Part shown: piece by piece, positions 7,388 to 49,963 of the stretch
Layout of the letters: the number at the start of each line of letters is the position of its first letter
Numbering within the stretch: the first letter of the stretch is position 1
Source: Deltaproteobacteria bacterium
GTDB taxonomy: Bacteria; Myxococcota_A; Polyangia; GCA-2747355
Reading direction: 5' to 3'
NCBI GenBank assembly: GCA_020633415.1
Contig: JACKDQ010000002.1
Coordinates: 134,945-198,944, forward strand
Length of the DNA stretch: 64,000 bases
The notes under the pieces: model-generated
Database searches by the model: none
Told to the model about the DNA's origin: nothing
The model's input: only the letters and a program-made list of their open reading frames with translations
Program-made: the position numbers and the translations under genes

Positions 7388-7391
7388 AGGA

Positions 7392-11141: not shown

Positions 11142-11310
11142 GCCGTTATCGCCGGGCCTGCCGGCCCGTCGTCGCCGACACGACCCCGAAGCGCCAAGCG
11201 CGACCTAGCGTGTCGGTGACGACAAAGAGGCACCGTTTGGGTAACAACCCACGGTGTGGCCCTGCGAGCCAATCCCAACCCCGCCGATCGGCGGGCGACA
11301 AACGTTCAAG

Positions 11311-11345
11311 ACGGGCACCTGCTGTTTGGGGTGCCCGTTTTCTTT
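11311..11345 (+). terminator. rho-independent terminator
   Basis: 9-bp stem ACGGGCACC / GGTGCCCGT with a 10-nt loop, followed by TTTTCTTT. Confidence 0.55.
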
Positions 11346-11385
11346 GGCCACAACGACGCGGCTGAAATCAAAGAAATAGTCGTCG

Positions 11386-12231
11386 ATGAGTCGAACGATG
11401 GGCTGGCGATCGCTACCGGGCCTGCTGTTACTGGCCGCGCTGACGAACTGTCCGGGCAAGGCGCCCCGCGGACTGCGCTTTGACAGTGGTTCAGACCTGC
11501 AACGACTGCGGCCCAAAGATGGACCTCCTGCCGAAAGCGACAGCGCTACCGCCGTCGATCTCAGCAAGCCGAGCGATGGGAGCGTGCCTCGGGTCGATCA
11601 GCGGGTGCCGACCGATGCTAAACCGCCCGACGCTGGACAGCCGCCCAAGCTCGACGGGGCGTCACCCAGCGCCGACAGCACCGTCGTCGATAGCGCCGCA
11701 AAGCTGGACAGCACCCCCATCGATAGCGCGCCACCGGTCGACAGCAGCGTCGACAGCGCGGCGGGCAGCAACCCCTGCCGACCGACAACAGCCACGCTCG
11801 TCAGCCAGCCGCTCGCCGACCTGGCGTTTTGCAGAAAATTGATCGGCGCGGTCAATCAATGCGGTGCCGCCACGCTCTGCAACGATGGCTGGCGCCTCTG
11901 TCCAGCGTCGGTCTATCAGACGCACTACCGCGCCACGCCCGCACCTCTGGCCGACGCTTGGATCGCCGGCTGCGTCGCTGAGTCCTCAGCGGGCTTTCTG
12001 CCGCTCGATCGGGTCTGCATCGGCTGCAGCTCTGGCCAGGGCGCTCAGCAAGACTTTGGCTGGCGATGCAGCGATCTCACGCCGGCCTACAGCAGCAAGG
12101 AGGTCGCCGTCGGCCTGACCAGCTCGACGACCTGCCACCGCGTCGGCATCGCGGTCACCGCGACCATCGGCCATTGGCGCACGCTCGGCGCCTGGATCCC
12201 GGTTTCCGCCGCGGTGTGCTGCAGAAAATAG
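11386..12231 (+). CDS. secreted lipoprotein: Pro/Asp/Ser-rich linker + Cys-rich C-terminal domain
   Basis: Signal peptide with LTNC lipobox. Low-complexity (V/I)DS(A/S/T) repeats. 12 Cys in the C-terminal 150 aa. Confidence 0.7.
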   Translation: MSRTMGWRSLPGLLLLAALTNCPGKAPRGLRFDSGSDLQRLRPKDGPPAESDSATAVDLSKPSDGSVPRVDQRVPTDAKPPDAGQPPKLDGASPSADSTVVDSAAKLDSTPIDSAPPVDSSVDSAAGSNPCRPTTATLVSQPLADLAFCRKLIGAVNQCGAATLCNDGWRLCPASVYQTHYRATPAPLADAWIAGCVAESSAGFLPLDRVCIGCSSGQGAQQDFGWRCSDLTPAYSSKEVAVGLTSSTTCHRVGIAVTATIGHWRTLGAWIPVSAAVCCRK

Positions 12232-12280
12232 CTCGAAAACAAAAGATATTTTCCGGGAGCGCGGGTCGTGACGCCATAGA

Positions 12281-12298
12281 TTTAACCATACGGTTAAA
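12281..12298. promoter_or_regulatory. 18-bp palindrome (operator-like)
   Basis: TTTAACC-ATAC-GGTTAAA, a perfect 7-bp inverted repeat in an AT-rich patch 42 nt upstream of the S8 peptidase ATG. Confidence 0.3.
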
Positions 12299-12339
12299 GC
12301 GCTTGTTTTGGCGGTGCCCAAGGATCCATACTGCCCGTC

Positions 12340-15144
12340 ATGTTTGGCTTCATTAGACGATGCTTGGCGCACAGGGTAATCACCTCGCTACTGGCCCTCG
12401 CGCTGCCGGTGAGCTGCGGCGGCGATGGGAAACATACCGCGCGAGACGCTGCGCCGGCGATCGATGGCGCGACCAGCGATGGGACAAAAGCCGACAGCGG
12501 TCCGGCGCCCGCGCAGTGCCTTGGGGGGTTGGTCGATCAGCCGTTGGGTGAAGCCGCGCTGCAAAGCGGGCAGCGTAGCGGCCGAGCCGAGCGACTAGCG
12601 ATCCCGCTTCACCGGCGCACGCTCAGCGCTGCCGACTTCTCGGCTCCCCTTTCGATCCGTCAGACGCCCCAGCTGGTCTACCTCTGGCTCAACGCGCCGA
12701 CCACCGCCGGCGATTGGCTCGAGCGCCGACAGCACGGCGTTCACTGGATCGAACACGTCAAAGACCGCGTACACCTGGTGTTGCTCGAGGCCGGCGTTAA
12801 CCCGGCGCAAATCACCGGGCTCCCCGAAGTCGCCGGCATTGCCGCACGCAGCTGGCGCGACAAGCTCGGCCCGGCGTTCGTCTATGACCCGCAGCGAAAG
12901 CGCGACATATTGGTGCGCACTTGGTCGCTCGTCACCGACGCCGCGGGCGGCAAACAACTCCAGCTCGGCCACCGCGTCATCCGCGCTCGCAGCCTTGCCG
13001 AGGCCGAGCAGATCGCCCGCCGCGCGACGGTGCTGCGCGTGACCGAGCACGTCGACGACAAGCCGCTGATCGACCGAACGCGTCGCGTGCTGGGCAGCGA
13101 CGACGTCAACAAGATCGATCTTAGCCAGTCGCCGCCGCAATATCTCGGCGTTAGCGGCAAAGGCGTGAAAATCGCCGTGGTCGACACCGGTGTCGACGCT
13201 GACCACCCGGACTTTCATCGCTTTGATAGCGCGGGAAACGATCTCGGTTCGCGCGTCGTCGGCGAAAAGCCTGGCGGCAGCGAGCCAGCGCATGGCACCC
13301 GCGTGGCCGGTGTGATCAGCGGCAGTGGTCGACACAGTGAAAGCAGCGAAGCCAAGCAGGAACAAGAGCCTTCGCCGTATAGCTGGCGTGGGCACGCCCC
13401 GGAAATCGACAAAATCGTCGCGCTCTATTTTGGCGGCTTGAGCGGCTTCACCAACCTCTACAAACAAGGGCTGCAAGCGCACAACACCTATCTGTCCAAC
13501 CACAGCCACACGATCACCACCGGCCCCTACAACGACGCAACCCAAGCCTATGACAGCATCCCGAACAAGGGCACCGAGGGGCTGGGCGACCCGGTGCGAC
13601 CGCCGCGCGTTGTCGTCTTCGCCGCGGCCAATAGTGGCAACAAGGTCGGCTTCTCCGACGCAACCTTCAAACTCCAGGGTTACTACAGCATCTTGGCCGG
13701 ACCGAAAAATGCGATCGTCGTCGGTGGCACCAACGGCAACGACCTAACCTACATGCCGTCATCCTCCAAGGGGCCAACCCTCGATGGCCGACTCAAGCCC
13801 GACGTCGTGGCGATCGGCGGATTCAACTACGGCCCGCTCGACGGCGCGGTGCTAGAGATCGCCGAGATCCGCTTGGTCGGCAAAGCACCCAAGCCAGATC
13901 GCGTCTGGACGTTCAATAAGGACGGCGACATGCTCGGCTGGACCGTCGAGGACGGCTTCGACGATGCACAGGTGAAGAACGGCTTTTTGCGCACGACCAC
14001 CTATGTCAAAGCGCAGGCGGGTGCGCTGCGCTTTTACGCCACCAAAGTCGACGGGAAGCCGATCGAAGCCACCGACTACGAGCGACTCGAAGTCAAGATG
14101 CGGGTGGCGATCAAAATTGTCCCGGACATCTACACGTGGACACGGTTCTGGGCGGTGCGCTGGGACACCAACGGCGACGAGGGGGTCAACGGCGAGGTGT
14201 TCCCGCAGTACGACAAGGCGAAGCGCACGCCAGGCGTGATCCAGACCCACCAAGCGAAGCTCAACGATCAATGGAAAGGGCAAATCCATTGGCTCCGCAT
14301 CCGCCCTTTCCCCTACGACAACCGCGTCGTGGTGCTCGAACCGGGCGCGCAATACGGCGTCGCTGGAGCAACATCGATCGCCGCACCGATGGTCAGCGGC
14401 ATTATCTCGCTGATGATCGACCGCTTGATCCACGACCAGGCGATCGACTTCGAAAACGCACCGCCTCTGCCGTCGACGATCAAAGCGATCGTGATTCACA
14501 CCGCGATCGACCTCGAGCATACCCAGAACGCCGCGCGTGAGCCGGACAACCCCGATACCAAGGCGCCGGTGCAGCATCATCTCGGACCTGACTTTGCCAC
14601 CGGCTACGGCCGCGTCGATGCCCGAGGGGCGATCGCCTTGATCGATGCCCACAAGCAAGCGACCAAATGGCGTGAGGCAGAACTGTCCGAGGGACAAACC
14701 CACAACTATCAACTGCGGGTCGATCGACGTCTCGCTGGATCGGGACCGCTCAAACTAACCCTGGTCTGGGATGACATGTGGGGCTCCCCGGAACTCAAGG
14801 TTACCGCATCGCAGTTGGTCAACGACCTCGACATCGTGGTGATCGATCCCGCTGGCAAAGCGCACTTCCCCTGGCACTTACCGCGGCTACCCTACGACGA
14901 TGCGACGATCGCCAGCGGTATCGACCCGATCAAGCCAACCGATGTGAAGGCAGCAACCCGCTGCGCGCGCGACACGTATTGGACCCCAGCGACGAGTGAC
15001 TGCGAGGACCACCAGAACAACGTCGAACAGGTGTTGATCGATGCGCCGGTCGCCGGTAACTACAAGGTGCTGGTACGCGGCAAGGCAATTCCCCAGGGAC
15101 CACAGAAGTACAGCCTGGTGCTCAGCCAGAGCTGCACCCCTTAG
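12340..15144 (+). CDS. S8 (subtilisin-family) serine peptidase lipoprotein, 934 aa
   Basis: Lipobox LPVSC. Catalytic triad contexts VAVVDTGVD (Asp), HGTRVAGV (His) and GATSIAAPMVSG (Ser). Large insertion between His and Ser. C-terminal P-domain-like tail. Confidence 0.9.
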   Translation: MFGFIRRCLAHRVITSLLALALPVSCGGDGKHTARDAAPAIDGATSDGTKADSGPAPAQCLGGLVDQPLGEAALQSGQRSGRAERLAIPLHRRTLSAADFSAPLSIRQTPQLVYLWLNAPTTAGDWLERRQHGVHWIEHVKDRVHLVLLEAGVNPAQITGLPEVAGIAARSWRDKLGPAFVYDPQRKRDILVRTWSLVTDAAGGKQLQLGHRVIRARSLAEAEQIARRATVLRVTEHVDDKPLIDRTRRVLGSDDVNKIDLSQSPPQYLGVSGKGVKIAVVDTGVDADHPDFHRFDSAGNDLGSRVVGEKPGGSEPAHGTRVAGVISGSGRHSESSEAKQEQEPSPYSWRGHAPEIDKIVALYFGGLSGFTNLYKQGLQAHNTYLSNHSHTITTGPYNDATQAYDSIPNKGTEGLGDPVRPPRVVVFAAANSGNKVGFSDATFKLQGYYSILAGPKNAIVVGGTNGNDLTYMPSSSKGPTLDGRLKPDVVAIGGFNYGPLDGAVLEIAEIRLVGKAPKPDRVWTFNKDGDMLGWTVEDGFDDAQVKNGFLRTTTYVKAQAGALRFYATKVDGKPIEATDYERLEVKMRVAIKIVPDIYTWTRFWAVRWDTNGDEGVNGEVFPQYDKAKRTPGVIQTHQAKLNDQWKGQIHWLRIRPFPYDNRVVVLEPGAQYGVAGATSIAAPMVSGIISLMIDRLIHDQAIDFENAPPLPSTIKAIVIHTAIDLEHTQNAAREPDNPDTKAPVQHHLGPDFATGYGRVDARGAIALIDAHKQATKWREAELSEGQTHNYQLRVDRRLAGSGPLKLTLVWDDMWGSPELKVTASQLVNDLDIVVIDPAGKAHFPWHLPRLPYDDATIASGIDPIKPTDVKAATRCARDTYWTPATSDCEDHQNNVEQVLIDAPVAGNYKVLVRGKAIPQGPQKYSLVLSQSCTP

Positions 15145-17605: not shown

Positions 17606-19534
17606 TTACTGGCCGCCGGCGCGCAAAGCGCCGCGCTGATCCGTGCGATCGATGTAGCGTCGGTGCCAAAGCTCAAGCCAGAGCAAGTTCCAGATCCGCA
17701 GACCGTGATCGATCGCGCCGCTATCATGCTCGTCGAGCAGTCGCTTGACGCCTTCGCGTTCGAAGTAGCCGCGGCCGATCGCCTGAGGCGAAAGCAACGC
17801 GTCGCGAGCCAGACTGCGCAAGTCGCCGCGTAGCCAACGCGCGTGGGGGATCCCAAACCCGCGCTTGCGACGGCGCAAGATCGCCGGCGGTAACAAATCG
17901 CGCACCGCCTCGCGAAAGATCCGCTTGCCGCGGAATCCGTGAAGCTTGAGGCTCGGAGGCAAGCGTGCGGCGAACTCGAGCACGTGGTGGTCGACGATCG
18001 GCGACCGTACTTCCAGTGAGTGTGCCATCGAGGCGATGTCGACTTTGACGAAAATATCGTCGGGCAGATAGCTGTTGCTGTCGATGTCCAACAGCAGATC
18101 GACGGCATTGCGCGCGCTACTTTGCTTGGCGATCCCCTGCAGCAGTTGGGCGGTCGCGTCGATTTCGCTGAGGCCGAGCGATTGCGCTGCTACGCGTTCG
18201 AGTGACTGGCGATTAAAGTTGCCAAACTCAGCGACGTAGCGCATCTCGGGCGACAACTGGATCCGATAGGCGCGGTGGCGAATATCGGCAAACAGTTCGC
18301 GCAGCTTGCGACGTGCTCCAACGTTGGGCAGTCGTTCGAGGGCTTGTGCGATCGGCTGAACCAACAGCTTCGGCAGTCGACCATAGAGGCGTGCGCCACG
18401 CTCATAGGCGTAGCGCGTGTAACCGGCAAAAGTCTCGTCACCGCCGTCGCCCGACAGCGACACCGTGACGTGCTTGCGCGTCATCCGCGAAAGACAATAG
18501 GTTGGGACCGCCGATGGATCGGAAAACGGCTCGCCGTACTGCTCAACCAACGTCGGCAGCAGCGCGGCAGCGTCTGGGCGGACGATCTCTTCGTAGTGCT
18601 CGGTCCTGCAATGCTCGGCGACAAGCCGCGCATACTCGAGCTCGGAAAAGTCCGCATCATCGAAGCCGATCGAGAAGGTCTTAACCGGGTGCGGCGAGTG
18701 CCTCGCCATCAGCGCAACGATCGCTGACGAATCGACGCCGCCCGAAAGAAACGCCCCAAGGGGCACGTCAGCGATCATTCGCGCGCGGACCGCATCATCG
18801 AGCAGATCGCGCAGATCCGCGGCAACCTCGCGCACGGGCCGGCGATCGTAATCGGCAAAATCGAGCTTCCAATAGCGATGAGACTCGAGCTTGCCATCGC
18901 GCAACAAGACGTAGTGCCCGGGCAACACTTTCTTCACGCCGCTGAACAAACATTGGCTCGAGGGCACAAAGCCGAGCGACATGTAATGGGTCATCGCCAC
19001 AACGTCGACATTGCGTTCGACCTCGTCGTCGAGCAGCAAGGTGCGCACTTCCGAAGCGAAACTGAATCCGCGTCTTCCTGCGTGATAATAGAGTGGCTTC
19101 TGACCGACGCGGTCGCGCGCCATCATCAGCGTTCGCGTCCGTCGGTCCCAAATCGCGAAAGCGAACATACCGCGCAATTCGTTGACGCAGGCTGGACCCT
19201 TGTGACGATAGAGCTCGAGCAGCACCTCGGTATCGCAGCGCGTCTTGAGGCGTACACCGTGCTGAGCCAGCTCAGCGCCGAGCTCATTGAAGTTGTAGAT
19301 CTCGCCGTTAAAAACCACGGCCACCTGGCCGTCTGCGCTGATCATCGGCTGATTGGCTTCGGGACGCAGGTCGAGAATCGATAGGCGCGCATGAGCCAAA
19401 GCGACCGAACCGTCGACGTGAACGCCTGCCGCGTCCGGACCGCGATGATGCAGCGACTTGGCCATCGCTTTGGCCAAGGCCTCTGCAGCAGGTGCTTGCG
19501 GATCAAACCAGAGGTGACCGGCTATTCCACACAT
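17606..19534 (-). CDS. asnB: asparagine synthase (glutamine-hydrolysing)-family amidotransferase
   Basis: N-terminal MCGIAG (Ntn Cys2 nucleophile) fixes the start at 19534. PP-loop FLSGGVDSS. At 642 aa it is longer than housekeeping AsnB and sits in an envelope operon. Confidence 0.9.
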   Translation of the reverse strand: MCGIAGHLWFDPQAPAAEALAKAMAKSLHHRGPDAAGVHVDGSVALAHARLSILDLRPEANQPMISADGQVAVVFNGEIYNFNELGAELAQHGVRLKTRCDTEVLLELYRHKGPACVNELRGMFAFAIWDRRTRTLMMARDRVGQKPLYYHAGRRGFSFASEVRTLLLDDEVERNVDVVAMTHYMSLGFVPSSQCLFSGVKKVLPGHYVLLRDGKLESHRYWKLDFADYDRRPVREVAADLRDLLDDAVRARMIADVPLGAFLSGGVDSSAIVALMARHSPHPVKTFSIGFDDADFSELEYARLVAEHCRTEHYEEIVRPDAAALLPTLVEQYGEPFSDPSAVPTYCLSRMTRKHVTVSLSGDGGDETFAGYTRYAYERGARLYGRLPKLLVQPIAQALERLPNVGARRKLRELFADIRHRAYRIQLSPEMRYVAEFGNFNRQSLERVAAQSLGLSEIDATAQLLQGIAKQSSARNAVDLLLDIDSNSYLPDDIFVKVDIASMAHSLEVRSPIVDHHVLEFAARLPPSLKLHGFRGKRIFREAVRDLLPPAILRRRKRGFGIPHARWLRGDLRSLARDALLSPQAIGRGYFEREGVKRLLDEHDSGAIDHGLRIWNLLWLELWHRRYIDRTDQRGALRAGGQ

Positions 19535-19538
19535 ACTC

Positions 19539-22500
19539 TCACTCTTTATCTTGCGTCGGTTGATCCGACGACACGCGCGTCGGCGCAAGCAACGTAATCA
19601 AGGCCGGCAAGGCATAGGTCGAGGCGATAAACAAACTGACCAACCCGACGATCGCTGCCTGGCCAAGCGAACGCAACCCGGGGTGAGCCGCCAAGGCCAT
19701 GTTGCCAAAACCGACCACCGAAGTAGCGGCGCAAAAGAAGATCACGCCAAACAGCGCACCGCGAGCGCGCGCGACGCTCCGTTCGCCCTGATAGCGGTGA
19801 ACGAAATGGATGCCGTAGTCGATGCCGATGCCGAGCAGCGCCGGCAAGACGACAAAGTTGAAGATGTTGAGCTTGATGTCCAACATGCGCAATGCCAAGA
19901 ACGTCCATAGCATGCCGATGGCAACCGGTGCAAAGGCCAGTAAGCCCAGGCGCCAACTGCGAAAGTCAGCAACGGCCGCCAACAAAACCACGATAAACGC
20001 GATCAACAAGGCGATCCGTCCGTCGCGCAGCATGATCTCGACCACATCGGTGATCACAAGCTCGCTCGACGACACATGGAAACGTCCGGCTGCGACAACC
20101 GGCTGTTCCAGCCGGCGTTCCACGGGAAGGAGATCGCCGCGCACCCAGCCGACCAGCTGTCCGCGCAGACCACCCTCGGTCGCCTTGCCTTGCTTGTAAG
20201 CCTCAGCCGTTTCGATCAACGAAGCGAAGGCCGCGCGACCGTCGTGTTTGAAACCGGCCAGACGTGCTTTGCAGGCGTCGATCGACGGGACAGGCGTCGC
20301 TGCGCTCGCAGGCGTATCGCGCTCAGCGGTCATCCCCGGGCAAGCGACCTCCACGCGCCGCCCTTCGACGTGAACGTTGCCCCCACCAAGCACGGCTAAC
20401 GGACTAAATAGCGGCGTACCGGCGAAATTTCCAACCTGATCTTTGAACCGCCGGGCTTGCCGACTGTCGCTGATGTTGATGCCGTAATAGGCCATACCGA
20501 CCCAAACATCCCCAAAGCCCGGCCCGCGAAAACTGCGCCGCACCGGCGACGGCAAGTCCGCCACATCGAAGGGCTGCGCGGCGGCCATCTTGCGCAGCAG
20601 CGGCAAGCGAATCTGCTCGCGCGTCTTCTTGCCGACCAAGTTCCATCGCTTGCGATGTAGCAACCGCTTGAGGTCGTCGAGGATCAGTCGTTTCTCCCGC
20701 TGACGCTCGGGGATCAAGCTGAGGATCGAGGCCGTCTTGCGCACCGTCGAGCGCTCGCCGAGGCGCCGGCGACTGATTTCGATCGCATCCAACGCAGCGC
20801 GCAGGTGGTCGCGCGAGGGCGTCAACATCAACGTTGGGGTAAACGACTCCCCCAGACATTGACCACAACGGTCGAGAACCTCGTCGGGCCGGCCGGTGGG
20901 ACGCAGCACGCTATGGTCGTACTCGATCTGCACCGTTGCTGCGCTATAGACACCACCCGCAGCCAAGAGCAAAGCAACGATCGACACCCAGCGGGCGGCA
21001 CGGATCGGTCGACGCGGGCGTGCCGCCGCTGCCTCGAGGGTACCCACCCGCAGCATGCCGGAGCGTTCAGCCAAGCGGATCAACGCTGGGAGCACAAACA
21101 GGAACGCCACCAGCGCGAACAGAATGCCAACGCCAGCGATCAAGCCAAACTCGGAAAAACCACGAAAGTCGGAAACCATCAGCGCGAACAGCGCCGCTGC
21201 ACTCGTCAAGGCCGATGTCGTCGTGGCGCGTCCAGTGTCGAGCAGAGTCGTCTCCAACGCGTCGTCGAGCTCGGCACCCGCCTGACGTTCCTCGCGATAG
21301 CGCCCGTAGAGCTGCATGCCGTAGTCGATGCCAAGACCAAACAGCACCGCGAACAGAAACCCGGTGACGACGTTGACGCTACCGATGGTCAACACGACAA
21401 TGCCGAAGGTCCAGATGATCGACATCGCCAGCGGCAACAAAACGAAGACAAAGCCGACCAAACGGCGAAAGTAGAGCGCCAGCATCAAGGCGATGCCACC
21501 GATCGCAAGCCAGGCCAACCCAAGAATATCGGCGATCGTTTCGTCGTACTCGGCGAGTTTGCGAACACCATCTCCGCCAATATCCAAGCGCAACAGTGAG
21601 TCTGCGGGGAGCTTTTCCTCGGCGAGAATCCGCGAGATATCGCTCCGCAGACGACGCAGGTTGCCCAAGCTGGATCGGTTCTCGTGGGGATATACCAGGA
21701 TGCCGGCCGACGCGCCGTCGTGGGCCAAATAGTACGCGCTCTGCTCGGCAAGTCGGTGACGCTGCGACTCGATCAGCTCGCTAAGATCGGACTTTGGGGC
21801 CTTGGACGAATCGCCTTCATCCTCATCAAGCGCGACAAAAACGCCCGTGGCCTTGGCCGTCTCGCGATCGAACGTTTCACTGAGCTTGCGATAGAGGCGC
21901 TTGAGCTCGTCAACGGCGAGATAGTAAAGCCCGCGCTCTTTGAAGAAATCCACCGGCTTTTCGACGACGACGCGGCCGACAAGCGGGCTGGTGCGCAACC
22001 GATCAGCTAGCGCCCGCAGTCGGGGCATGTGCTCGTCCAGCGATACGTCCGGTCGCCAAACGGCCGTCAGCTGCCAATCACATCCGGCCGGCTTGGGCGT
22101 ACACCCTGGAGGCGGCCAGCTGCTCGGAGGGTCGACAGTGTGAAACGCCGCCGGAAACCAGGCCTCGCGTGGCTCACTGCGGCGCAGATAACTGCAGTGC
22201 GTGCCCGCCGCCCAAACCTTGCTACGCCCGCGCGAGAACACCGCGCGCAAATCGGTATTCTCGGCGACACTGCGATCGGACAGCGCTTTGCCGTCGAAGA
22301 ACAGCGCCGTACCGCTATCGCCGACCGCATAAACGTAGCGCTCGTCAGCGCCGCTCACACCTCGCAGATCGACCTGCGTAGGCGCCGCAATCGCCCGCCA
22401 GCCATCGTCCCCGCGCCGCAGAAAGGTTCCGCCGTCGCCAACCGCAAAGGCTGTGCCTCCCTCAGCGACCCACACGCCGCGGAGGTCCTTTTTCACCGGG

Positions 22501-23156
22501 CTGGACTCCGGTACGAAAGCATCATCGTGCCAGCGCAGAATCAAGCCGCCATCGCCCACAACGAACAGTGATCGTCCCGCACCAGCAACAGCGTTGAGTC
22601 TCACCTTGGTCGGACTCGCGACCTGCTGCCACGCTCGTCCATCGAACCGCAACACGCGACCGCTATCACCAACCGCGAATACCCGCGTCGACGATGCGCA
22701 ATACAGACCGCGCAACGTGGTGGTCGTCGGGCTCCGCACCGAGCGCCAGCTCTTGCCATCGTAGTGGTGGAGCGCACCGCCTGCGCCCGCTGCCCAGACA
22801 TTGCGAGGTGAGCTACCGCACACGGTATACAGCGGCTGTGACGTCGGATCGCTCTGCCAGTGCTTGCCATCGTGACGCAGCAGCTCGCCGCGTGCGGTCA
22901 CCGCAAAATGGAAGCTCTTGCTGAGCAGCACCATGAAACCGGTGTCGGTCGGATAGCTCTTTTGAATGCGGCGCAGCACCCGCAAGTCACGGTTATCCTC
23001 GGGGAGCAGGTTGGTTAGATCGCTGTCGAAGCGCAGTTTGTCGAGCGACATCAACGCCGCCACCGTCAAACCGGCCGCGACAACAAGTACGGACCAAGAT
23101 CGGCGACTGGTACTTGCCGCCAGCCGACTCAGTCCTCTTAGTGGATCGAATGCCAT
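19539..23156 (-). CDS. MMPL/RND-type exporter with a beta-propeller inserted in the first periplasmic loop
   Basis: Two 5-6 TM bundles, each with G(I/L)GIDYG...RY(R/Q)(E/G)E motifs. Residues ~83-335 carry seven (V/A)xA(V/A)GDxGxxLxxDGxxW repeats. Confidence 0.85.
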   Translation of the reverse strand: MAFDPLRGLSRLAASTSRRSWSVLVVAAGLTVAALMSLDKLRFDSDLTNLLPEDNRDLRVLRRIQKSYPTDTGFMVLLSKSFHFAVTARGELLRHDGKHWQSDPTSQPLYTVCGSSPRNVWAAGAGGALHHYDGKSWRSVRSPTTTTLRGLYCASSTRVFAVGDSGRVLRFDGRAWQQVASPTKVRLNAVAGAGRSLFVVGDGGLILRWHDDAFVPESSPVKKDLRGVWVAEGGTAFAVGDGGTFLRRGDDGWRAIAAPTQVDLRGVSGADERYVYAVGDSGTALFFDGKALSDRSVAENTDLRAVFSRGRSKVWAAGTHCSYLRRSEPREAWFPAAFHTVDPPSSWPPPGCTPKPAGCDWQLTAVWRPDVSLDEHMPRLRALADRLRTSPLVGRVVVEKPVDFFKERGLYYLAVDELKRLYRKLSETFDRETAKATGVFVALDEDEGDSSKAPKSDLSELIESQRHRLAEQSAYYLAHDGASAGILVYPHENRSSLGNLRRLRSDISRILAEEKLPADSLLRLDIGGDGVRKLAEYDETIADILGLAWLAIGGIALMLALYFRRLVGFVFVLLPLAMSIIWTFGIVVLTIGSVNVVTGFLFAVLFGLGIDYGMQLYGRYREERQAGAELDDALETTLLDTGRATTTSALTSAAALFALMVSDFRGFSEFGLIAGVGILFALVAFLFVLPALIRLAERSGMLRVGTLEAAAARPRRPIRAARWVSIVALLLAAGGVYSAATVQIEYDHSVLRPTGRPDEVLDRCGQCLGESFTPTLMLTPSRDHLRAALDAIEISRRRLGERSTVRKTASILSLIPERQREKRLILDDLKRLLHRKRWNLVGKKTREQIRLPLLRKMAAAQPFDVADLPSPVRRSFRGPGFGDVWVGMAYYGINISDSRQARRFKDQVGNFAGTPLFSPLAVLGGGNVHVEGRRVEVACPGMTAERDTPASAATPVPSIDACKARLAGFKHDGRAAFASLIETAEAYKQGKATEGGLRGQLVGWVRGDLLPVERRLEQPVVAAGRFHVSSSELVITDVVEIMLRDGRIALLIAFIVVLLAAVADFRSWRLGLLAFAPVAIGMLWTFLALRMLDIKLNIFNFVVLPALLGIGIDYGIHFVHRYQGERSVARARGALFGVIFFCAATSVVGFGNMALAAHPGLRSLGQAAIVGLVSLFIASTYALPALITLLAPTRVSSDQPTQDKE
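22152..22910 (-). repeat. seven ~36-42-aa blade repeats (Ycf48/BNR-like beta-propeller) inside the MMPL gene
   Basis: VWAAGAGGALHHYDGKSW, VFAVGDSGRVLRFDGRAW, LFVVGDGGLILRWHDDAF, AFAVGDGGTFLRRGDDGW, VYAVGDSGTALFFDGKAL, VWAAGTHCSYLRR, plus a partial first blade. Confidence 0.65.
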
Positions 23157-23170
23157 CGGTTGCGCTGGTC

Positions 23171-24691
23171 CTAACGGTCCTGGTTTCGTCTATTTCGCCA
23201 TTTATCGATCGCCTGGCGTTCCTCGCGACCTAGCCCGAATAGCAGCACCGCCGCTCCGTATGCCGTGAGCATGATCACCGTACCAACCACCAAACGCATG
23301 ACCAGATTTTCGGGTAGTCGCGGAGCAACGAAGTACATCAAACATATCGTCGCGCTACCGATCGCGACGAGGCGAAGCCCCAAGGACGAAAACGGTTGAA
23401 CACGCTGCAAACGCACCACCAAGAGTAGTTGCAGCAGCTGATAGAACGCCACCGACACCGCGGAGGCTAGTGCCGCGCCGATCAGGCCAAACCGCGGAAC
23501 GGTGAACAAGCAGACCGCGATGTTGAGCGCGGCCGACAAGGCGTTGTTGAGTAGGATCAGATCAGATCTCCCCGCCATCCCTAGCACCCAGCCCACCAGG
23601 CCGAGCGAACAGTTGAACACATGCCCTAAGACAAGGATCAGGAAAGCGGCGGCGCCGCTGGAGAAACCCTTGCCGAACAGACTCAGCAGCTCGACGCGAA
23701 AGCCAACGATAAACGCGACGACCGGAAAGGTCAGCAGCAGCACCCAGCGTGTCATCAGCTTAAGGTTGTAGCTTAGGCGCGCACGATCACCCTGCGCGAG
23801 CGCTTCGGAAAGCACCGGCGAGGCGACCGGATCAAACGCATAGCGAGCATTCGACACCGATCGGCTCAGCAATTCGGCTGCCGCGTAAACGCCGACAACG
23901 CTCTCGTCGGCGTAGAAACTGAGGATGATCAGGTCTGCGCGCTGCAACACGCCATTGAGCGCCTCAGAAAGTCCCATCGGCATCGAGAAGCGCACCATCT
24001 CCCAATGGGGCGGGCCCTGACGAAGCTGCTGCCAAAACGATCCCTGATCGAACACACGCGCGGTGACGACGAAAGCCCAAACGGCGGTGATCGCCGTGGC
24101 GATCAGATGCGAAGCGCACAGCGCCAACAACGAACGCGAAAAGTGGCTAGCGATGATCGCCGCCGCCATCAGCAACAACGGCTGTCCCAGCCCGCGCACA
24201 TAGAGATTGAAGCGCATCACCTTGGCCGCCATCGTCGCCGAGATCAGCACCGCGATCAGTGCAGTGAACGGCGCACTGGGCGCCAACAGGCGCAGAGGTC
24301 TAACGATCGAGGGGTTTTCCTGAAGCGCAGCCAGCGGCGCAGCCAACAGCGCCATCAGCGCTGCCAGCGCAGCGCCGGTCGCCGCGGTCGCCCAAAACGC
24401 CGTCGAGAGCGTCCGACGCAGTAGATCGTCCTCGCCGACGGCGCGATGGGCGGCGATATGCCGCAGCACCCCTTTGTCCATGCCGAGCATGGCGAAGCGC
24501 GCGACGATTTCAAGCAAACCGACCGCCACGGAATACGCGCCGTAGAGCGCCTTGCCAAAAAAGCGCGCCACGACGGCGTGGTATGCGGGTAAGGCAAGGC
24601 CTGCGATCACCGCCAGCAGATTGGTACCGCCGCCTTTGGCAGCGTGACGCACGTCAGCGCGGCGACTTTGCTCGGAGCTCGTCACGCGCAT
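23171..24691 (-). CDS. polysaccharide/oligosaccharide flippase (MOP/Wzx-like) membrane protein
   Basis: 506 aa and highly hydrophobic, with about 12-14 predicted TM segments. Lies 14 nt upstream of the MMPL gene. Family call is from architecture only. Confidence 0.7.
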   Translation of the reverse strand: MRVTSSEQSRRADVRHAAKGGGTNLLAVIAGLALPAYHAVVARFFGKALYGAYSVAVGLLEIVARFAMLGMDKGVLRHIAAHRAVGEDDLLRRTLSTAFWATAATGAALAALMALLAAPLAALQENPSIVRPLRLLAPSAPFTALIAVLISATMAAKVMRFNLYVRGLGQPLLLMAAAIIASHFSRSLLALCASHLIATAITAVWAFVVTARVFDQGSFWQQLRQGPPHWEMVRFSMPMGLSEALNGVLQRADLIILSFYADESVVGVYAAAELLSRSVSNARYAFDPVASPVLSEALAQGDRARLSYNLKLMTRWVLLLTFPVVAFIVGFRVELLSLFGKGFSSGAAAFLILVLGHVFNCSLGLVGWVLGMAGRSDLILLNNALSAALNIAVCLFTVPRFGLIGAALASAVSVAFYQLLQLLLVVRLQRVQPFSSLGLRLVAIGSATICLMYFVAPRLPENLVMRLVVGTVIMLTAYGAAVLLFGLGREERQAIDKWRNRRNQDR

Positions 24692-24834
24692 CAGTATCGA
24701 AAAACGATCGGGTGGTCAATGGGCCCATCGGCGGCCTGCGACGCGCGCGTACTCAGACAAACACCTGTTATCAGTGCATTTACAATGCCTAGGCAGATAC
24801 CGCCTGCCGGTATATCGTCCGCTCAGCGAGGCCG

Positions 24835-25962
24835 ATGGCAGAAAAATCGACCAAGATCTTCTTTTTGATTCCGAGCCTGACCCAAGGCGGTGCGGAGCGC
24901 CAGGTGCTGGAACTGATCCGCCGGCTGCCCGCGCGCTTTCAACCGGTGCTGGCGTTGTTCCACGACGATGTCTACTACCGTGACCTCTTACCTGCAGGCC
25001 AGCCGCGCTACGTGCTCGGCGCCAACAAGATGTCACGCTCGACCTTTGCCCAGTTGGTGTCGATCCTGCGCAAAGAGCGCCCAACGATCTTTCAAGGCTT
25101 TCTCAATCAAGCCAGCTTCTGGGGGCGTCTGGCCGCCCTCCGTGCCGGCGTGCCGGTGATTCTCGGCGCCTGTCGCGCGCGCATGATCGAGCCACAGTAT
25201 CTTGCGTTTGAGTCGTTGCTCTGTCGGCTAACCGGGGGAGTCTTAACAAACTCGGTCGGAGTAGAGCACGAACTGCGAACCCTTGCTGGGGTGCCAGCGC
25301 ACAAGATCCACGTCGTGCCCAACTTCCTCGACCTCGAGACATTCCGCCCACCGACAGATCAAGAACGTCGAGCGGCGCGGCTCCAATGGGGTCTCGGCGC
25401 CGAGCAGCGCGTGATGCTGATGCCGGGGCGAATCTGCCTACAGAAACATCAGCCAGGGTTGCTGCTGGCGATCGAACAGCTGGTGGCATGCGGCGCGATC
25501 GCCAACGACGACGTGTTGCTGCTGGCCGGCCGTCTCAAGGGGGGTACTGTCGCCCCACTGGTCGAGAGGATGGTCCAGCGTCCGCCACTTTCAAGCCACG
25601 TTCGTCTACTGGGGTCGCAGCGCGACATTCGCTCGCTCTATTGGGCGGCCGACCTGCTGGTTATGCCCTCCCTTTGGGAAGGCTTGCCCAATGCCGTCCT
25701 CGAAGGCTGTGCCTGCGGATTGCCCGCTGTGGTATCCCACGCCGCCAACGTCGACGGCATCGTCGATCCACAGCGAACCGGATTCGAAAACATCACCGCC
25801 GACCGGCAAGACTTGATCCACGCACTGCGCACAGCGCTAGCCCTCGATCGCGCTGCCTGGCGCGAGATGGGCCAACGCGCACGGCAGCGGATGGAGCAGC
25901 GCTATCACCCTGATGGTGTGTTGCGGCAGATGACCAGCCTCTACGACAGCCTGGCCGCCTGA
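24835..25962 (+). CDS. glycosyltransferase family 4 (GT-B)
   Basis: N-terminal GGAERQ and the C-terminal EGLPNAVLE (E-x7-E) motif. Divergent from the flippase operon. Confidence 0.85.
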   Translation: MAEKSTKIFFLIPSLTQGGAERQVLELIRRLPARFQPVLALFHDDVYYRDLLPAGQPRYVLGANKMSRSTFAQLVSILRKERPTIFQGFLNQASFWGRLAALRAGVPVILGACRARMIEPQYLAFESLLCRLTGGVLTNSVGVEHELRTLAGVPAHKIHVVPNFLDLETFRPPTDQERRAARLQWGLGAEQRVMLMPGRICLQKHQPGLLLAIEQLVACGAIANDDVLLLAGRLKGGTVAPLVERMVQRPPLSSHVRLLGSQRDIRSLYWAADLLVMPSLWEGLPNAVLEGCACGLPAVVSHAANVDGIVDPQRTGFENITADRQDLIHALRTALALDRAAWREMGQRARQRMEQRYHPDGVLRQMTSLYDSLAA

Positions 25963-25986: not shown

Positions 25987-26754
25987 CTAGAACTTGGAAA
26001 AGTCCGGCGCGCGCTTCTGCATAAACGCCGTGAAGGCTTCGATCGCTTCGGGCGATGTTAGACGCTCCACGAACAGTTCACCTTCGCTGAGCATCGTCTC
26101 GGCGACAAGCTCTGCGGTTCCCGCCCGCAACAGCTGTTTGCAGATTTGCAGCGCTCCGGGAGGCTTTGCGGCGAGCTTTGCCGCGCGCTCGGCGGCGTGC
26201 TGATAGAGCGTCTCGGCATCGACGATCTGATTGACGATGCCGAGCTGGTAGGCGGTCCGGGCATCAAACGCCTCGGCGAAGAACAACAACTCAGCCGCGC
26301 GCTGGGGCCCAACCAAACGGGGCAAGAGGTAGCTCGAGGCAGCCTCGGGAGGTACAGCCAAATCAACAAACGGCAGGCGGAACTTGGCGCGCGGGCTGGC
26401 ATAGACCAAGTCGCAGTGCAGCAACATCGTCGTGCCGACACCGACCGCGTGGCCGTCGACGGCGGCGATCACCGGTTTGCCGAACCCGCTGATCGCCTGC
26501 AGAAAACGAAAGACCGGCGTGTCGGTGTCTTTGGGCGGTTCCTGCAAGAAACTGCCGAGATCGTTGCCGGCGGTGAACACGCCATCCTCGCCGCGAACAA
26601 CGACCACGCGACACGCGCTGCTCTGATCAGCCTGACGCAGCGCCGTGGCAACCGCCTCGTACATCGCCGGGGTCAAGGCGTTCTTCTTTTCGCTGCGGGC
26701 GAAGGTGATCGTGGTGACGCGGTCGGCGGTCTCGATACGGATCAGTTCACTCAT
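25987..26754 (-). CDS. enoyl-CoA hydratase/isomerase (crotonase fold)
   Basis: FTAGNDL and IAAVDGHAVGVGTTMLLHCDL oxyanion-hole segments. 255 aa. Confidence 0.9.
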   Translation of the reverse strand: MSELIRIETADRVTTITFARSEKKNALTPAMYEAVATALRQADQSSACRVVVVRGEDGVFTAGNDLGSFLQEPPKDTDTPVFRFLQAISGFGKPVIAAVDGHAVGVGTTMLLHCDLVYASPRAKFRLPFVDLAVPPEAASSYLLPRLVGPQRAAELLFFAEAFDARTAYQLGIVNQIVDAETLYQHAAERAAKLAAKPPGALQICKQLLRAGTAELVAETMLSEGELFVERLTSPEAIEAFTAFMQKRAPDFSKF

Positions 26755-26849
26755 GGCGCAAGCTTAACGCAAGGTTCGGCGACGAGCACGCCAAACTCTG
26801 CGCAGCTGCGCTTCTTGGGGGGAGCGAGCTCGTTTTCGAGACGGGCTAA

Positions 26850-27043
26850 CGGCGTGCTCGGGACCACCTCGGGGTGGACGCGGTCGCCATCCGTCGTTCA
26901 TCGACGAGCGCCGACGGACCGAACCAACGAGCGTCCCGAGACACGAAATGTGCGCTCGGTCCCCGAACGAAGCGAGCGTTAGGGCGCGCGCATATGCGGT
27001 CGCTCTCCTCAGAGAGAGAGCCGAGGTGGTCCCGAGCACGCCG
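26850..27043. repeat. 23-bp perfect inverted repeat bracketing a 148-bp structured intergenic segment
   Basis: CGGCGTGCTCGGGACCACCTCGG (26850-26872) is the exact reverse complement of 27021-27043. The interior holds two degenerate copies of the GTCCCGAG core and an (AG)5 run. Confidence 0.6.
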
Positions 27044-27079
27044 ACAGCCCCTCACTCACGCCCGGAGAGGGAAGTCGCC

Positions 27080-28534
27080 TCAGAAGGTGTACTGCAATTC
27101 GAGGCTCGGCAGATGACTACGCCCCGCTCCACGTCCGTTGCTGGGCGGCTGACTGACGCTGTTGCGAATATCGCGCTCGATCAGCTCGTACAGCAGATAG
27201 CTGGCGAGCAGTCGCCAACGCCCGGCAAAGGTATAGCGCACGCCGAATGAGAGGTTGTAGCTGCTCATCGATGGACTCGACAGCGAGAACGCCGGATCTT
27301 CGACCGGTGACTTGTCATAGGAAAAGCCGGCCATCACTTCGAGCTTGGGCAGTGTGCGCAGCGGCCGAACCAGCACCCCAATTCCGAACTCGTAGCTGAG
27401 ATCGTAGAAATTCGTCTGCGTCAACGAGGCGGCATCGATCACTTCGCGACCGGGCTGCTTCGCATCATAGACCGGCGTAACCTTGAGATCGTCGAGCAAC
27501 TGATAGAGCCAAAACCGCGCGTCGACCGAAATCTCGACCTGGCGATGGGGAATCACAGTAAACCCAACGCCGAGCGAATGGGGAATCTCGATCTTGATTT
27601 TAAGCGCCGTCGGCAGCTTTACCCCCGCGGTATCGAGCAACACCGGCAATTGGCTGGGATTGCGCTGAGCGGAAAAGCTCACACCACCGTCGTACTGCGC
27701 GGGCGTCGAACCGCTGTAGTTGAAGCCGAGGATCAACCAGGGCAGCGGCGTGATCTTTAGACCGAGCCCCCAGCTCATGCCGTGGTCGATGCCGGTAAAG
27801 TCGACGGTGATGTCGCCGAGCAACAGCTGGGCGGTCTCCGCCTCGAGGCCGGGCACGCTCACCAAATCGGTCAGCGTGGAGATCAAACTCATCCGCCGAG
27901 TAAACGCCATGCGCATCAGGTTGTAAGAGAGCGTGCCGCCCACAGCGATCTTGTCGTTGATACGCCAAGAGGCACCGAATGTCGCGGTGCCCATCGCGAA
28001 GTTGCCCGAGATAAAGTTGTACTGTGACGGTGCGTCGGCCGGCAAAACCGCGCCGAAGAAGCCCGGCAGGTAGAGGGCAAGTCCAACGACGATGTCCCGT
28101 CGCCCCCAGCGCGCGAGATCGCTGGTCACCGCCGCATAGGGCAGGATACCAACGTTGGCCTCAGGAACGATCGGCTTGGTGTAAAAGCCATCGGGACCGA
28201 CCGGCCAGGGGCAAGGCGCGTGACCCGCTGTGCCGCAGCCCGGCGGATTGAGTTCCGGATAGCGCGTCTCGTCGAGCTGGCGCAGCCAAAACTGCGTCTC
28301 AACGAAGACCATCACGTTGGACAGGTAGAGCGTCGTGCCAGGGATGTCGGCTAGCGCGCCGGGGTTGTGCACCAGCGCGGTGGCTTCATCAACGCTGGCA
28401 ATGTTGGCCAGCGCGGCCATCCGCCGCCCGCCCATCGACGTCAGAATGAAGCCACCGGCATGGGCCGCCGTCAGCGGCGCCGAGATCAGCGTCGCCAGGC
28501 AGAGCCAACAAAGTAGCGATCGCCGGCCCGTCAA
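27080..28534 (-). CDS. outer-membrane transport protein (FadL/OmpP1/TodX-like)
   Basis: TTG start. Signal peptide ...PLTAAHA. Beta-barrel strand pattern. C-terminal ...LELQYTF (terminal Phe). Confidence 0.7.
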   Translation of the reverse strand: MTGRRSLLCWLCLATLISAPLTAAHAGGFILTSMGGRRMAALANIASVDEATALVHNPGALADIPGTTLYLSNVMVFVETQFWLRQLDETRYPELNPPGCGTAGHAPCPWPVGPDGFYTKPIVPEANVGILPYAAVTSDLARWGRRDIVVGLALYLPGFFGAVLPADAPSQYNFISGNFAMGTATFGASWRINDKIAVGGTLSYNLMRMAFTRRMSLISTLTDLVSVPGLEAETAQLLLGDITVDFTGIDHGMSWGLGLKITPLPWLILGFNYSGSTPAQYDGGVSFSAQRNPSQLPVLLDTAGVKLPTALKIKIEIPHSLGVGFTVIPHRQVEISVDARFWLYQLLDDLKVTPVYDAKQPGREVIDAASLTQTNFYDLSYEFGIGVLVRPLRTLPKLEVMAGFSYDKSPVEDPAFSLSSPSMSSYNLSFGVRYTFAGRWRLLASYLLYELIERDIRNSVSQPPSNGRGAGRSHLPSLELQYTF

Positions 28535-29136
28535 AACGTTCTCGATCCCCGGGCCTGCACACCGGCTATCGCAACAGTCTTGCAGCCGCTGAGCGACTGC
28601 GATCCCTGGCGCAAATTGCAGCCACCGCGCAACCAGCGCTGCGGCTGATGCTCAACTCGCTGGGCCAACTGCGGCAACGCGACCGCCAGCCATCCGCGAC
28701 AAAGACGGTTGTCAGGCACACGGCAATCGTATTGGGCGACCATGCGGGCAGACTCACTCGGTAGCCCTTTTTGATCATAACTTGCCGAAAAGCGCAACCG
28801 ATCTGGCGGTCCACCACAGTCTGCGAAAATCCGAGGCTTCGCATTCATCGTGGTCGGTAATGCAGAAAGCGCTCCAGGTCGCGTCTCAATGAATCCGCTA
28901 GCCTGCGTAGCGACACACGCGCTAGTGGAAGGCTCAGGCGCCGCATGCCAACGGCACTACGTCACCCCGCTCCGTTCGCCTCGACCAGAAACCATCTCAG
29001 TTCGCCTCGACCAGGCGCTGGCTGCTTGGCCTGCCGTCAGCGGCCGAACCGCCTGCATTTACGCAATCATTTCAGGTGGCTTTCGTGGCATGGCCCTTGC
29101 TTTGTTACGCCGTCGAGCTGCCTTGAGGGGGAGAGA

Positions 29137-49210: not shown

Positions 49211-49963
49211 ATGAATCAACACAGCTTTCATCTGCTTTGCTACGGCTGGATCGGCGTCGCACTAGCGAGCTTTGCCTTGTTGCTGCGCGTCGCAGCCCCT
49301 TACGGCCGCCACCATCGCCGAGGCTGGGGACCGTCGATCAACCAGCGCTTGGGCTGGGTGCTGATGGAACTTCCTGCGGTGATCGCGATCGCCGCTTTTG
49401 CCTGGGGCGGTCCGCTTCCCTGGTCGAAGACGACGATCGCGATGCTCGCGCTTTGGCAACTGCACTACCTCAACCGCGCGCTGATCTTCCCGCTACGGAT
49501 CCGCAGCGGCGGCAAACGCACACCTGTCGCGATCATCGGCTCGGCGATCTTTTTCAACGTCGTCAATGGCTTCATCCAAGGACGCCAACTGACCTATTTC
49601 GGCTCGCCCAGCGACGCGCTGCTCGAGCCGACGTTCATCCTCGGCACGGCGCTGTTCCTTTGCGGACTGGCGATCAACCTGCATGCTGACGCGGTCCTCC
49701 GCCAGCTGCGCGGCCCGGGTGAAAACAACTACGCGATCCCTCAAGGTGGCCTCTACCGCTATGTCTCCTGTCCAAACTACCTCGGCGAACTGATCGAATG
49801 GAGCGCTTGGGCGTTACTCAGCCGATCGCTCGCTGGTCTAACCTTCACGATCTGGACAGCGGCAAACCTCGTACCTCGTGCGCTTTCGCACCACCGCTGG
49901 TACCGCGAGCAGTTCGCTGGCTACCCCAAGCAGCGTCGCGCGCTGATCCCCGGGCTGCTCTAA
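49211..49963 (+). CDS. 3-oxo-5-alpha-steroid 4-dehydrogenase (steroid 5-alpha-reductase)-like membrane protein
   Basis: NYLGELIEWSAWALL and C-terminal HHRWYREQFAGYPKQRRALIPGLL closely resemble the SRD5A C-terminal signature. 6-7 TM. Confidence 0.8.
   Translation: MNQHSFHLLCYGWIGVALASFALLLRVAAPYGRHHRRGWGPSINQRLGWVLMELPAVIAIAAFAWGGPLPWSKTTIAMLALWQLHYLNRALIFPLRIRSGGKRTPVAIIGSAIFFNVVNGFIQGRQLTYFGSPSDALLEPTFILGTALFLCGLAINLHADAVLRQLRGPGENNYAIPQGGLYRYVSCPNYLGELIEWSAWALLSRSLAGLTFTIWTAANLVPRALSHHRWYREQFAGYPKQRRALIPGLL

Follow-up and report, generated by a model that had tools for sequence, protein, structure and literature searches.

An HAE3/MMPL-family RND transporter with an inserted Ycf48-related beta-propeller, encoded between a Wzx-type flippase and an AsnB-like amidotransferase in a Polyangia genome

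Gene layout and the glycan-type genes

We analysed a stretch of 64,000 nucleotides (nt), hereafter the window, from a Polyangia genome recorded as Deltaproteobacteria bacterium (GenBank assembly GCA_020633415.1, contig JACKDQ010000002.1, positions 134,945 to 198,944). Three consecutive minus-strand genes in it encode a Wzx-type flippase, an RND transporter of the HAE3/MMPL family that carries a beta-propeller in its first periplasmic loop, and an AsnB-like amidotransferase; a GT4 glycosyltransferase gene diverges from them. A model that saw only the letters and their open reading frames (ORFs) had previously described these genes as an envelope operon, and we refer to that description as the sequence-only reading. 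All positions below are those of the window.

In the order of transcription, the flippase gene (506 amino acids (aa), 23171-24691) is followed after 14 nt (23157-23170, from the Wzx stop codon to the RND ATG) by the RND gene (1205 aa, 19539-23156), and after a further 4 nt (19535-19538, from the RND stop TGA at 19539-19541 to the AsnB ATG) by the AsnB-like gene (642 aa, 17606-19534). The junction sequences confirmed both spacer lengths to the nucleotide, in line with the sequence-only reading, and the AsnB-like protein starts at the ATG at 19534 (MCGIAG...), not at the TTG at 19588. Because these spacers flank the RND gene, Wzx, RND and AsnB are probably made from one transcript, with translational coupling. 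The GT4 gene (375 aa, 24835-25962, plus strand) is separated from the flippase gene by a divergent intergenic region of 143 nt (24692-24834, no strand assigned), presumably the site of the promoters. A promoter scan found no sigma-70 consensus match within this region, and the promoter and terminator scan gave counts near shuffle expectation and was uninformative. The GC content at third codon positions (GC3) is even across the genes.

Searches with Pfam and NCBIfam hidden Markov models confirmed the identities that had been proposed for all four genes. The flippase, a member of the MOP/PST superfamily, matched PF13440 (Polysacc_synt_3) with 75.2 bits (cut-off 23) and PF01943 with 51.6 bits (cut-off 28.2), and its hydropathy profile shows multiple hydrophobic segments along the 506 aa. 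The glycosyltransferase matched Glycos_transf_1 with 68.7 bits (cut-off 26.4) and Glyco_transf_4 with 56.6 bits (cut-off 28.5); its best NCBIfam model was TIGR03088, at 114.7 bits, below the cut-off of 409. The amidotransferase is of class II, the N-terminal nucleophile (Ntn) type, and matched PF00733 (Asn_synthase) with 354.5 bits, GATase_6/7, and TIGR01536 with 477.5 bits, above its cut-off of 267.1. The features that the sequence-only reading had pointed out in this enzyme are all present: the nucleophile Cys2 (codon 19529-19531), the SGGVDS PP-loop at aa 264-269 (18728-18745, minus strand) and a length of 642 aa, compared with 553 aa in E. coli AsnB (1CT9). The best model of all for the enzyme was TIGR03108, the XrtA/PEP-CTERM amidotransferase, with 597.5 bits. 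This upholds the suggestion of an amidotransferase of the glycan-locus type, linked to exopolysaccharide (EPS) and PEP-CTERM loci, though the score lies below the curated cut-off of 816.9. The closest solved structure is a hydroxyamidotransferase, 7YLZ (E 4.6e-68, as against 1e-44 for E. coli AsnB), a match that fits a substrate other than aspartate.

We found no exosortase, PEP-CTERM protein, Wzy, Wzc or Wza gene in the window. Because exosortase, Wzy, Wzc and Wza are lacking there, the GT4/AsnB/Wzx set is a minimal module, not a classical EPS locus. It resembles the XrtA/PEP-CTERM exosortase EPS loci in its Wzx-type flippase and in that TIGR03108 and TIGR03088 are the best models of its amidotransferase and glycosyltransferase. 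It differs from them in that both proteins fall under the cut-offs, that no exosortase is present in the window and that those loci have no RND transporter.

The RND transporter and its inserted propeller

The identification of the 1205-aa protein as an MMPL/RND transporter was borne out by Pfam (PF03176, 136.8 bits in two stretches, cut-off 20.5) and by matches to HpnN in both sequence and fold. The closest sequence in the PDB is HpnN 6WU0 (E 1.3e-30). The full-length AlphaFold2 (AF2) model, with a predicted local distance difference test score (pLDDT) of 83.3 and a predicted template modelling score (pTM) of 0.74, has HpnN 5KHN (E 8e-23) and 6WU0 (E about 1e-22) as its closest PDB folds. The best NCBIfam model was likewise HpnN, TIGR03480, with 247.9 bits, below its cut-off of 751.85; the HpnN equivalog NF052374 reached 121.7 bits against a cut-off of 1100, and the HAE3 subfamily model TIGR00921 reached 175.1 bits against 351.9. 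As all equivalog and subfamily scores were far under their cut-offs, an HpnN orthologue was ruled out. No Pfam families of hopanoid biosynthesis genes (shc, hpnH etc.) were found among the ORFs of the window.

Hydropathy and the AF2 model both gave 12 transmembrane (TM) helices, with large loops between TM1 and TM2 (aa 41-528) and between TM7 and TM8 (aa 742-1030). The helices in the model lie at aa 20-40, five within 529-698, one at 721-741 and five within 1031-1190. TM1 (aa 20-40, 23037-23099, minus strand) falls in a region that is conserved across the homologues sharing the inserted propeller (the fused family, described below), and the 19 aa ahead of it are positively charged, with four Lys or Arg residues. 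In MmpL3, Asp-Tyr pairs of the TM4/TM10 type form a proton relay. The window protein has such a pair in a GIDYG motif in TM4 (D611-Y612, 21321-21326, minus strand), invariant in the fused family, and another in a GIDYG motif in TM10 (D1113-Y1114, 19815-19820, minus strand), nearly invariant there; by analogy, the four residues are putative proton-relay residues. The second periplasmic loop (aa 742-1030, 20067-20933, minus strand) contains an invariant C939 and, at aa ~915-1013, about 100 aa that the nearest relatives of ~800 aa are missing, forming a small alpha/beta unit. A second cysteine, C962, also belongs to this unit, and a CGQC motif at aa 764-767 was found in the window protein specifically.

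With HpnN, the hopanoid transporter of Burkholderia and Rhodopseudomonas and also an HAE3 RND protein, the window transporter shares the 12 TM helices and the two periplasmic loops. Like HpnN it is a lipid-type RND protein with no membrane-fusion-protein or TolC genes nearby; HpnN has no propeller, and loop 1 of the window protein is ~265 aa longer. The mycobacterial MmpL3, MmpL4 and MmpL5 share its Pfam family and the TM4/TM10 Asp-Tyr pairs. They export a lipid or glycolipid from the inner membrane and have known accessory periplasmic partners (MmpS). They are distant from the window protein (E 1e-6 to 1e-20), which comes from a diderm myxococcotal bacterium and has a propeller as its accessory domain, in place of the coiled-coil or C-terminal domain of the MmpLs.

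The sequence-only reading had seen an expansion of about 250 aa in the first periplasmic loop, made up of seven blades that resemble a Ycf48-like propeller. Both points held. Loop 1 is longer by ~285 aa than that of unfused relatives, and 253 of these residues, aa 83-335 (22152-22910, minus strand), form the propeller. The insert follows the first strand of the porter domain and is bounded by two strands, the conserved DTGFMVLLS (aa 71-79) before it and TAVWRP (aa 364-369) after it. The unfused relatives (~800 aa) align with the window protein only from aa ~380, and HpnN-like sequences are gapped over aa ~57-373, a short block excepted. A linker of low pLDDT, aa 336-362 (22071-22151, minus strand), leads back to the porter domain; it is bracketed by C321 and C359, which are invariant across the fused family alignment and, on that pattern, may form a disulfide.

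AF2 modelling gave a confident seven-bladed propeller (pLDDT >90) within an HpnN-like RND protein, and a model of the propeller only, built with 14 family members, reached a pLDDT of 89.6 and a pTM of 0.88. In a fold search, the top 11 PDB matches were all Ycf48 (TM-score 0.61-0.69), followed by tectonin lectins and then by generic WD40 propellers. The family models for this type of propeller stayed under their cut-offs (PF14870, 20.6 bits against 27; PRK13684, 18.5 bits against 326). The claim of seven motif-bearing blades stood in part, since seven blades are modelled and the canonical motif is present in five of them, whereas the first (FAVTARGELLRHDGKHW) and the last (VWAAGTHCSYLRR) are degenerate. 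The claimed periodicity of roughly 120 nt also stood in part. DNA self-identity within 22152-22910 peaked at a shift of 117 nt (0.417, against 0.284 +/- 0.03 at other in-frame shifts), with harmonics at 231 and 234 nt. No comparable peak emerged when three control segments of the RND gene were treated likewise. In self-comparison, the propeller protein scored far above 200 shuffles at shifts of 39, 77 and 116 aa. The repeat is visible only statistically, however, and Tandem Repeats Finder found no DNA tandem repeat in the region.

Several features place the propeller in the periplasm, not the cytoplasm, in agreement with the sequence-only reading. It follows TM1 in a protein of canonical RND topology whose N-terminus is positively charged, the fold is HpnN-like with invariant cysteines on the flanks of the insert and conserved ones in both loops, and the C-terminal glutaredoxin domain of a sister clade must be cytoplasmic. 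The NCBI record of the protein, MCB9555336.1, has 1170 aa and leaves out the first 35 codons counted from the ATG at 23156 (23052-23156, minus strand), so that TM1 is missing. This shorter form would probably make a topology predictor misplace the propeller. The 1205-aa start is backed by the family alignment and by the gene call in a Logan assembly.

The fused protein is real, conserved and rare. We collected 16 full-length fused homologues with 41-52% identity, 96-99% coverage and a common insertion point, from JGI, ENA, NCBI and Logan assemblies and all from Myxococcota metagenomes. When 1.84 billion cluster representatives were scanned exhaustively with HMMER, full-length matches came from only about four clusters (50% level), beside some fragments. 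The GTDB species set contained two fused loci, in a Myxococcales metagenome-assembled genome (MAG) and in a MAG labelled Haliangium ochraceum. Both the 1205-aa ORF and the AsnB (P0268) recur in identical form in an independent Logan assembly, each recorded with a longest contig of 15,368 bp. The chance that the fused ORF is an artefact of assembly or annotation is close to nil. The shorter NCBI product, 1170 aa without TM1, could be cited for it. Against it stand the homologues, collinear and drawn from four sources, the identical ORF in the independent assembly, the uniform GC3 across genes and the confident AF2 model at both junctions of the insert; the 16 collinear homologues and the independent ORF together effectively exclude the mis-assembly that the sequence-only reading had named as a danger to its interpretation.

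In most other fused members (P0005-P0015; e.g. L004 10001-13930 and L008 8001-11918) the C-terminus is extended by a cytoplasmic domain of ~90 aa that is glutaredoxin-like (PF00462) and has a CP(S/A)C-type motif; this domain is missing from the window protein and from its three closest relatives. The domain hints at redox control of the pump.

Relatives of the propeller and of the locus

Genes for Ycf48-like (COG4447) periplasmic propellers recurrently stand immediately upstream of HAE3 (COG1033) RND genes, as a rule accompanied by genes for DUF1302, an outer-membrane barrel, and DUF1329, a LolA-like protein; this widespread pairing is mechanistically uncharacterised. Price et al. reported cofitness of the BNR/Ycf48-like, RND, DUF1302 and DUF1329 genes in Shewanella, Kangiella and Pseudomonas (bioRxiv 10.1101/072470), and the pair in P. 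putida is PP_2018 and PP_2019 (10.1101/2020.07.04.188060). Roles have been proposed for AmeABCD of Castellaniella with monoterpenes (PMC6394551), for PhnJKLM of Delftia with phenanthrene (PMC3318190) and for the 'Nanopod' cluster of the Desulfobacterota ORM2 with benzene (PMC13101534). In our literature search we found no description of an HAE3 or MMPL protein with an inserted propeller. The statement of the sequence-only reading that this architecture is known from no characterised system therefore needs amendment: the split propeller-RND pair is documented, and the inserted form itself appears in no paper that we found.

Comparison of the propeller with plasmid sequences by tblastn gave, as best annotated matches, genes for a 'YCF48-related protein' on Cupriavidus necator pBB2, Aromatoleum EbN1 plasmid 2 and a Pseudomonas veronii plasmid. 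At both of the two plasmid loci that we opened, this gene immediately precedes one annotated 'MMPL family transporter', and DUF1302 and DUF1329 genes are close by. Alignment of the family propeller profile with the Cupriavidus partner protein by hhalign gave a probability of 97% and an E of 8e-11, and the profile scored 72-76 bits on two MMPL-partner proteins, against 29-30.5 bits on the PDB Ycf48 sequences. By profile score, the propeller is much nearer to the stand-alone YCF48-related partners of MMPL proteins in Proteobacteria (the AmeC/PhnL type) than to the Ycf48 of photosystems. The RND moiety matched the Cupriavidus pBB2 MMPL protein with an E of 4e-9 in BLASTP, over TM segments only, and HpnN is closer.

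Ycf48/HCF136 (2XBG, 5OJR) has in common with the window propeller the seven-bladed fold and a blade motif of the AVGxxGxxLxxDGxxW type, with weak sequence similarity (29-30 bits). It is an assembly factor of photosystem II, whereas the propeller of the window is a domain within the transporter of a non-photosynthetic organism; no photosynthesis genes were found in the window, and the closest records are named Deltaproteobacteria, Myxococcales and Polyangia. AmeC-AmeD, PhnL-PhnM, the 'Nanopod' cluster and the COG4447 + COG1033 pairs likewise combine a Ycf48-related propeller with an HAE3/MMPL RND protein. In those split systems the propeller is a separate gene, while in the window it lies inside the RND polypeptide, and the RND moiety belongs to another HAE3 lineage than AmeD/PhnM. 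The split systems also come with DUF1302/DUF1329, neither of which is in the window, and have catabolic genes as neighbours where the window has glycan-pathway genes. Because the propeller is homologous to stand-alone MMPL partner proteins, we read the window transporter as an apparently independent covalent, Rosetta-stone-like realisation of the known propeller-RND partnership.

We compared nine distinct fused-RND loci, the window included. Glycan genes lie near the fused gene at several of the others. L001 has an orthologue of the divergent GT4 gene (37% identity) beside it; at L004 it is embedded in a glycan locus that encodes GT4 enzymes, Wzy_C, an epimerase and a nucleotidyltransferase; and at L007 glycosyltransferase genes and an unrelated Wzx are found 3-8 kb away. 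At L002 the fused gene lies downstream of a LolCDE-like ABC transporter and a LolA-like TP_0789 protein. ExbB/ExbD clusters were seen near the fused gene in L005, L006 and L008.

Three further loci were reached by searching from AsnB. In L014, a Polyangia MAG, AsnB (59% identity) is followed by a full-length Wzx (38%, E 2e-103) and a convergent HAE3 MMPL gene without a propeller. L015 has a GT4 orthologue (37%), a polysaccharide deacetylase, AsnB and a CDP-alcohol transferase fusion, and in L017 (27-5000) two AsnB paralogues (57% and 61% to the window enzyme) stand in tandem after a GT4 orthologue (51%), an arrangement that argues for the AsnB subfamily serving glycan or glycolipid modification over asparagine supply. 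A stand-alone propeller beside the unfused MMPL gene of L014 was considered and rejected, the 340-aa neighbour being an acidic, low-complexity protein. The Wzx alignment, scanned against metagenomes, brought up a single contig of 1.8 kb.

The nearest unfused HAE3 relatives have genes for lipid carriers or membrane lipids as neighbours. At L011 (5352-9299) the gene adjoins DedA/VTT and BacA (undecaprenyl-diphosphatase) genes, and at L012 (3-5032) and L013 (1-5005) it adjoins LPG_synthase_TM. In L013 a CDP-alcohol phosphatidyltransferase gene, a weak match, precedes LPG_synthase_TM; the equivalent gene in L012 is cut by the contig end and has no recorded match.

Proposed export route, its rivals and other genes of the window

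The explanation that accounts best for the whole, and towards which we lean, is that the window encodes a propeller-bearing HAE3/MMPL exporter, in which a known partnership has become covalent, and that this exporter moves the product of GT4, AsnB and Wzx onward. The cargo would be a lipid-linked or amphiphilic glycoconjugate, possibly amidated. On the cytoplasmic side, the GT4 enzyme would build a lipid-linked sugar unit in which the amidotransferase would convert a carboxyl group to the amide, Wzx would flip the amidated unit across the inner membrane, and the RND protein would carry the flipped unit onward. Driven by the proton-motive force through the Asp-Tyr relays of TM4 and TM10, like HpnN and MmpL3, the RND protein would draw a molecule of lipidic or amphiphilic nature out of the inner membrane's outer leaflet and lead it through its own periplasmic domain. 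Fixed atop that domain, the propeller would offer a docking or hand-off platform toward the outer membrane; enzymatic action of the propeller would not be expected.

Several observations weigh against this explanation. Neither Wzx nor AsnB is adjacent at any of the eight other fused-RND loci, and L005, L006, L008 and L010 share a different order, amino-acid permease / fused RND / HEAT-repeat protein / ruvCAB. Such housekeeping synteny at four loci argues for a general envelope role that is independent of the glycan module. The AsnB-like protein passes the generic asparagine-synthase equivalog, so that it may have a housekeeping role. No propeller gene lies beside the two nearest unfused relatives inspected (L011, L012, L013), and neither DUF1302/DUF1329 nor another obvious outer-membrane partner was found in the scanned ORFs of the window. 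A simple fusion of AmeC and AmeD orthologues was rejected because the RND moiety resembles AmeD-type MMPL proteins only distantly. The expectation of the sequence-only reading that the genes would co-occur in relatives accordingly failed for Wzx and AsnB at the fused loci (0 of 8) and held for pairwise links (L014, L001, L015, L017). The four genes are linked pairwise in several genomes, and the exact operon is so far present only in the window genome. Because of the AsnB-Wzx-MMPL trio in L014 and of GT4 beside AsnB or the fused RND gene, a functional link among the operon genes is plausible from these arrangements but would be lineage-specific.

The main rival is that the fused protein is a general outer-membrane lipid transporter of Polyangia, carrying a phospholipid, sphingolipid, ether lipid or similar, and that the Wzx/AsnB neighbourhood is a local rearrangement. 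We regard this as a serious possibility, on balance unlikely. The shared permease/RND/HEAT-repeat/ruvCAB synteny of four of the nine fused loci, which have no glycan genes, speaks for it, as do the position of one fused gene after the LolCDE-like transporter and the LolA-like TP_0789 protein, and the genes for membrane lipids or lipid carriers beside the nearest unfused relatives (DedA, BacA; CDP-alcohol phosphatidyltransferase, LPG_synthase_TM). It accounts poorly for the spacers of 14 and 4 nt on either side of the RND gene, for the recurrence of the AsnB-Wzx-MMPL trio in L014 and for the GT4 or other glycan genes that lie within 8 kb at four of the nine fused loci. We give little credence to a machine for tolerance and efflux, or associated with uptake, of hydrophobic small molecules, in which the propeller would serve assembly much as a membrane fusion protein does. 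The homology of the propeller to AmeC/PhnL-type partners and the proposals made for AmeABCD, PhnJKLM and the 'Nanopod' cluster (PMC6394551, PMC3318190, PMC13101534) would fit such a machine, and so would two genes situated past GT4 at a distance of 25 nt to 2.6 kb, which encode a FadL-like outer-membrane protein and an enoyl-CoA hydratase. The RND moiety, however, stands outside the AmeD lineage, the window holds no DUF1302/DUF1329 and no catabolic island, the FadL-like and hydratase genes have no counterparts at the other loci, and the operon partners are glycan-pathway genes.

Another alternative concerns the propeller itself, which might be a carbohydrate-binding, lectin-like module for the glycan head group of the cargo in place of a dock for a protein. 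Tectonin-2 structures rank 12-14 in the fold search (E ~2e-8), Pfam gives a weak Tectonin match (E 0.028), and secreted proteins with several Big_2 domains are among the closest sequence relatives of the propeller. The better matches, though, are Ycf48, which binds protein, and the MMPL-partner propellers, and Tectonin is six-bladed, so that we consider a lectin improbable.

If the propeller-bearing exporter is what the locus encodes, the fusion bears on a larger group of pumps. HAE3/MMPL pumps carry lipids (hopanoids, sterols, mycolates) to the outer envelope, and for a large group of them the pump gene has a Ycf48-like propeller gene as its neighbour. A built-in propeller fixes the meeting point of the two parts and thereby makes the docking hypothesis testable. 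We offer tentatively, as a proposal that is rather unlikely to hold in full, that the fusion is a natural 'Rosetta stone' for the docking of Ycf48-related propellers on PD1 of HAE3 proteins and at the same time reveals, in this lineage, a new Wzx-to-RND export route for an amidated glycoconjugate. If true, it would provide the first architectural clue to the widespread envelope machines made of DUF1302, DUF1329, Ycf48-related and MMPL proteins, and transfer across the periplasm by an RND protein would replace the classical Wzy/Wzc/Wza or ABC routes. Should the link to Wzx, AsnB and GT4 be functional, diderm bacteria would have an unrecognised way to move a flipped glycolipid past the inner membrane. 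The split pairing itself was already known; what is new is the link of the inserted propeller to the split propeller-RND systems.

Other genes of the window were also noted. Beyond GT4 and converging on it, a minus-strand group at 25987-28848 comprises the enoyl-CoA hydratase (25987-26754), the FadL/TodX-like outer-membrane protein (27080-28534) and a 105-aa ORF. None of the three has a homologue at any related locus, and the hydratase and the FadL-like protein were rejected as conserved partners of the cluster. An overlapping plus-strand ORF at 26146-26982 has no Pfam match and is probably spurious. Upstream of the cluster, at 7173-15144 on the plus strand, two very large and probably secreted proteases are encoded, one of 1322 aa (with a Met-zincin motif match only) and the other a 934-aa S8 subtilase, with a 281-aa ORF without a family match between them. 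On the far side, a minus-strand gene at 52020-54176 encodes a 718-aa protein with an Hsp70/DnaK-type ATPase domain and two C-terminal PilZ (cyclic di-GMP-binding) stretches, and a Ser/Thr kinase and a JAB-domain protein are encoded just downstream on the same strand. The gene at 49211-49963 (plus strand) encodes a protein of the 3-oxo-5-alpha-steroid 4-dehydrogenase (steroid 5-alpha-reductase) family (PF02544, 167 bits), which may have a tie to sterol or polyprenol metabolism.

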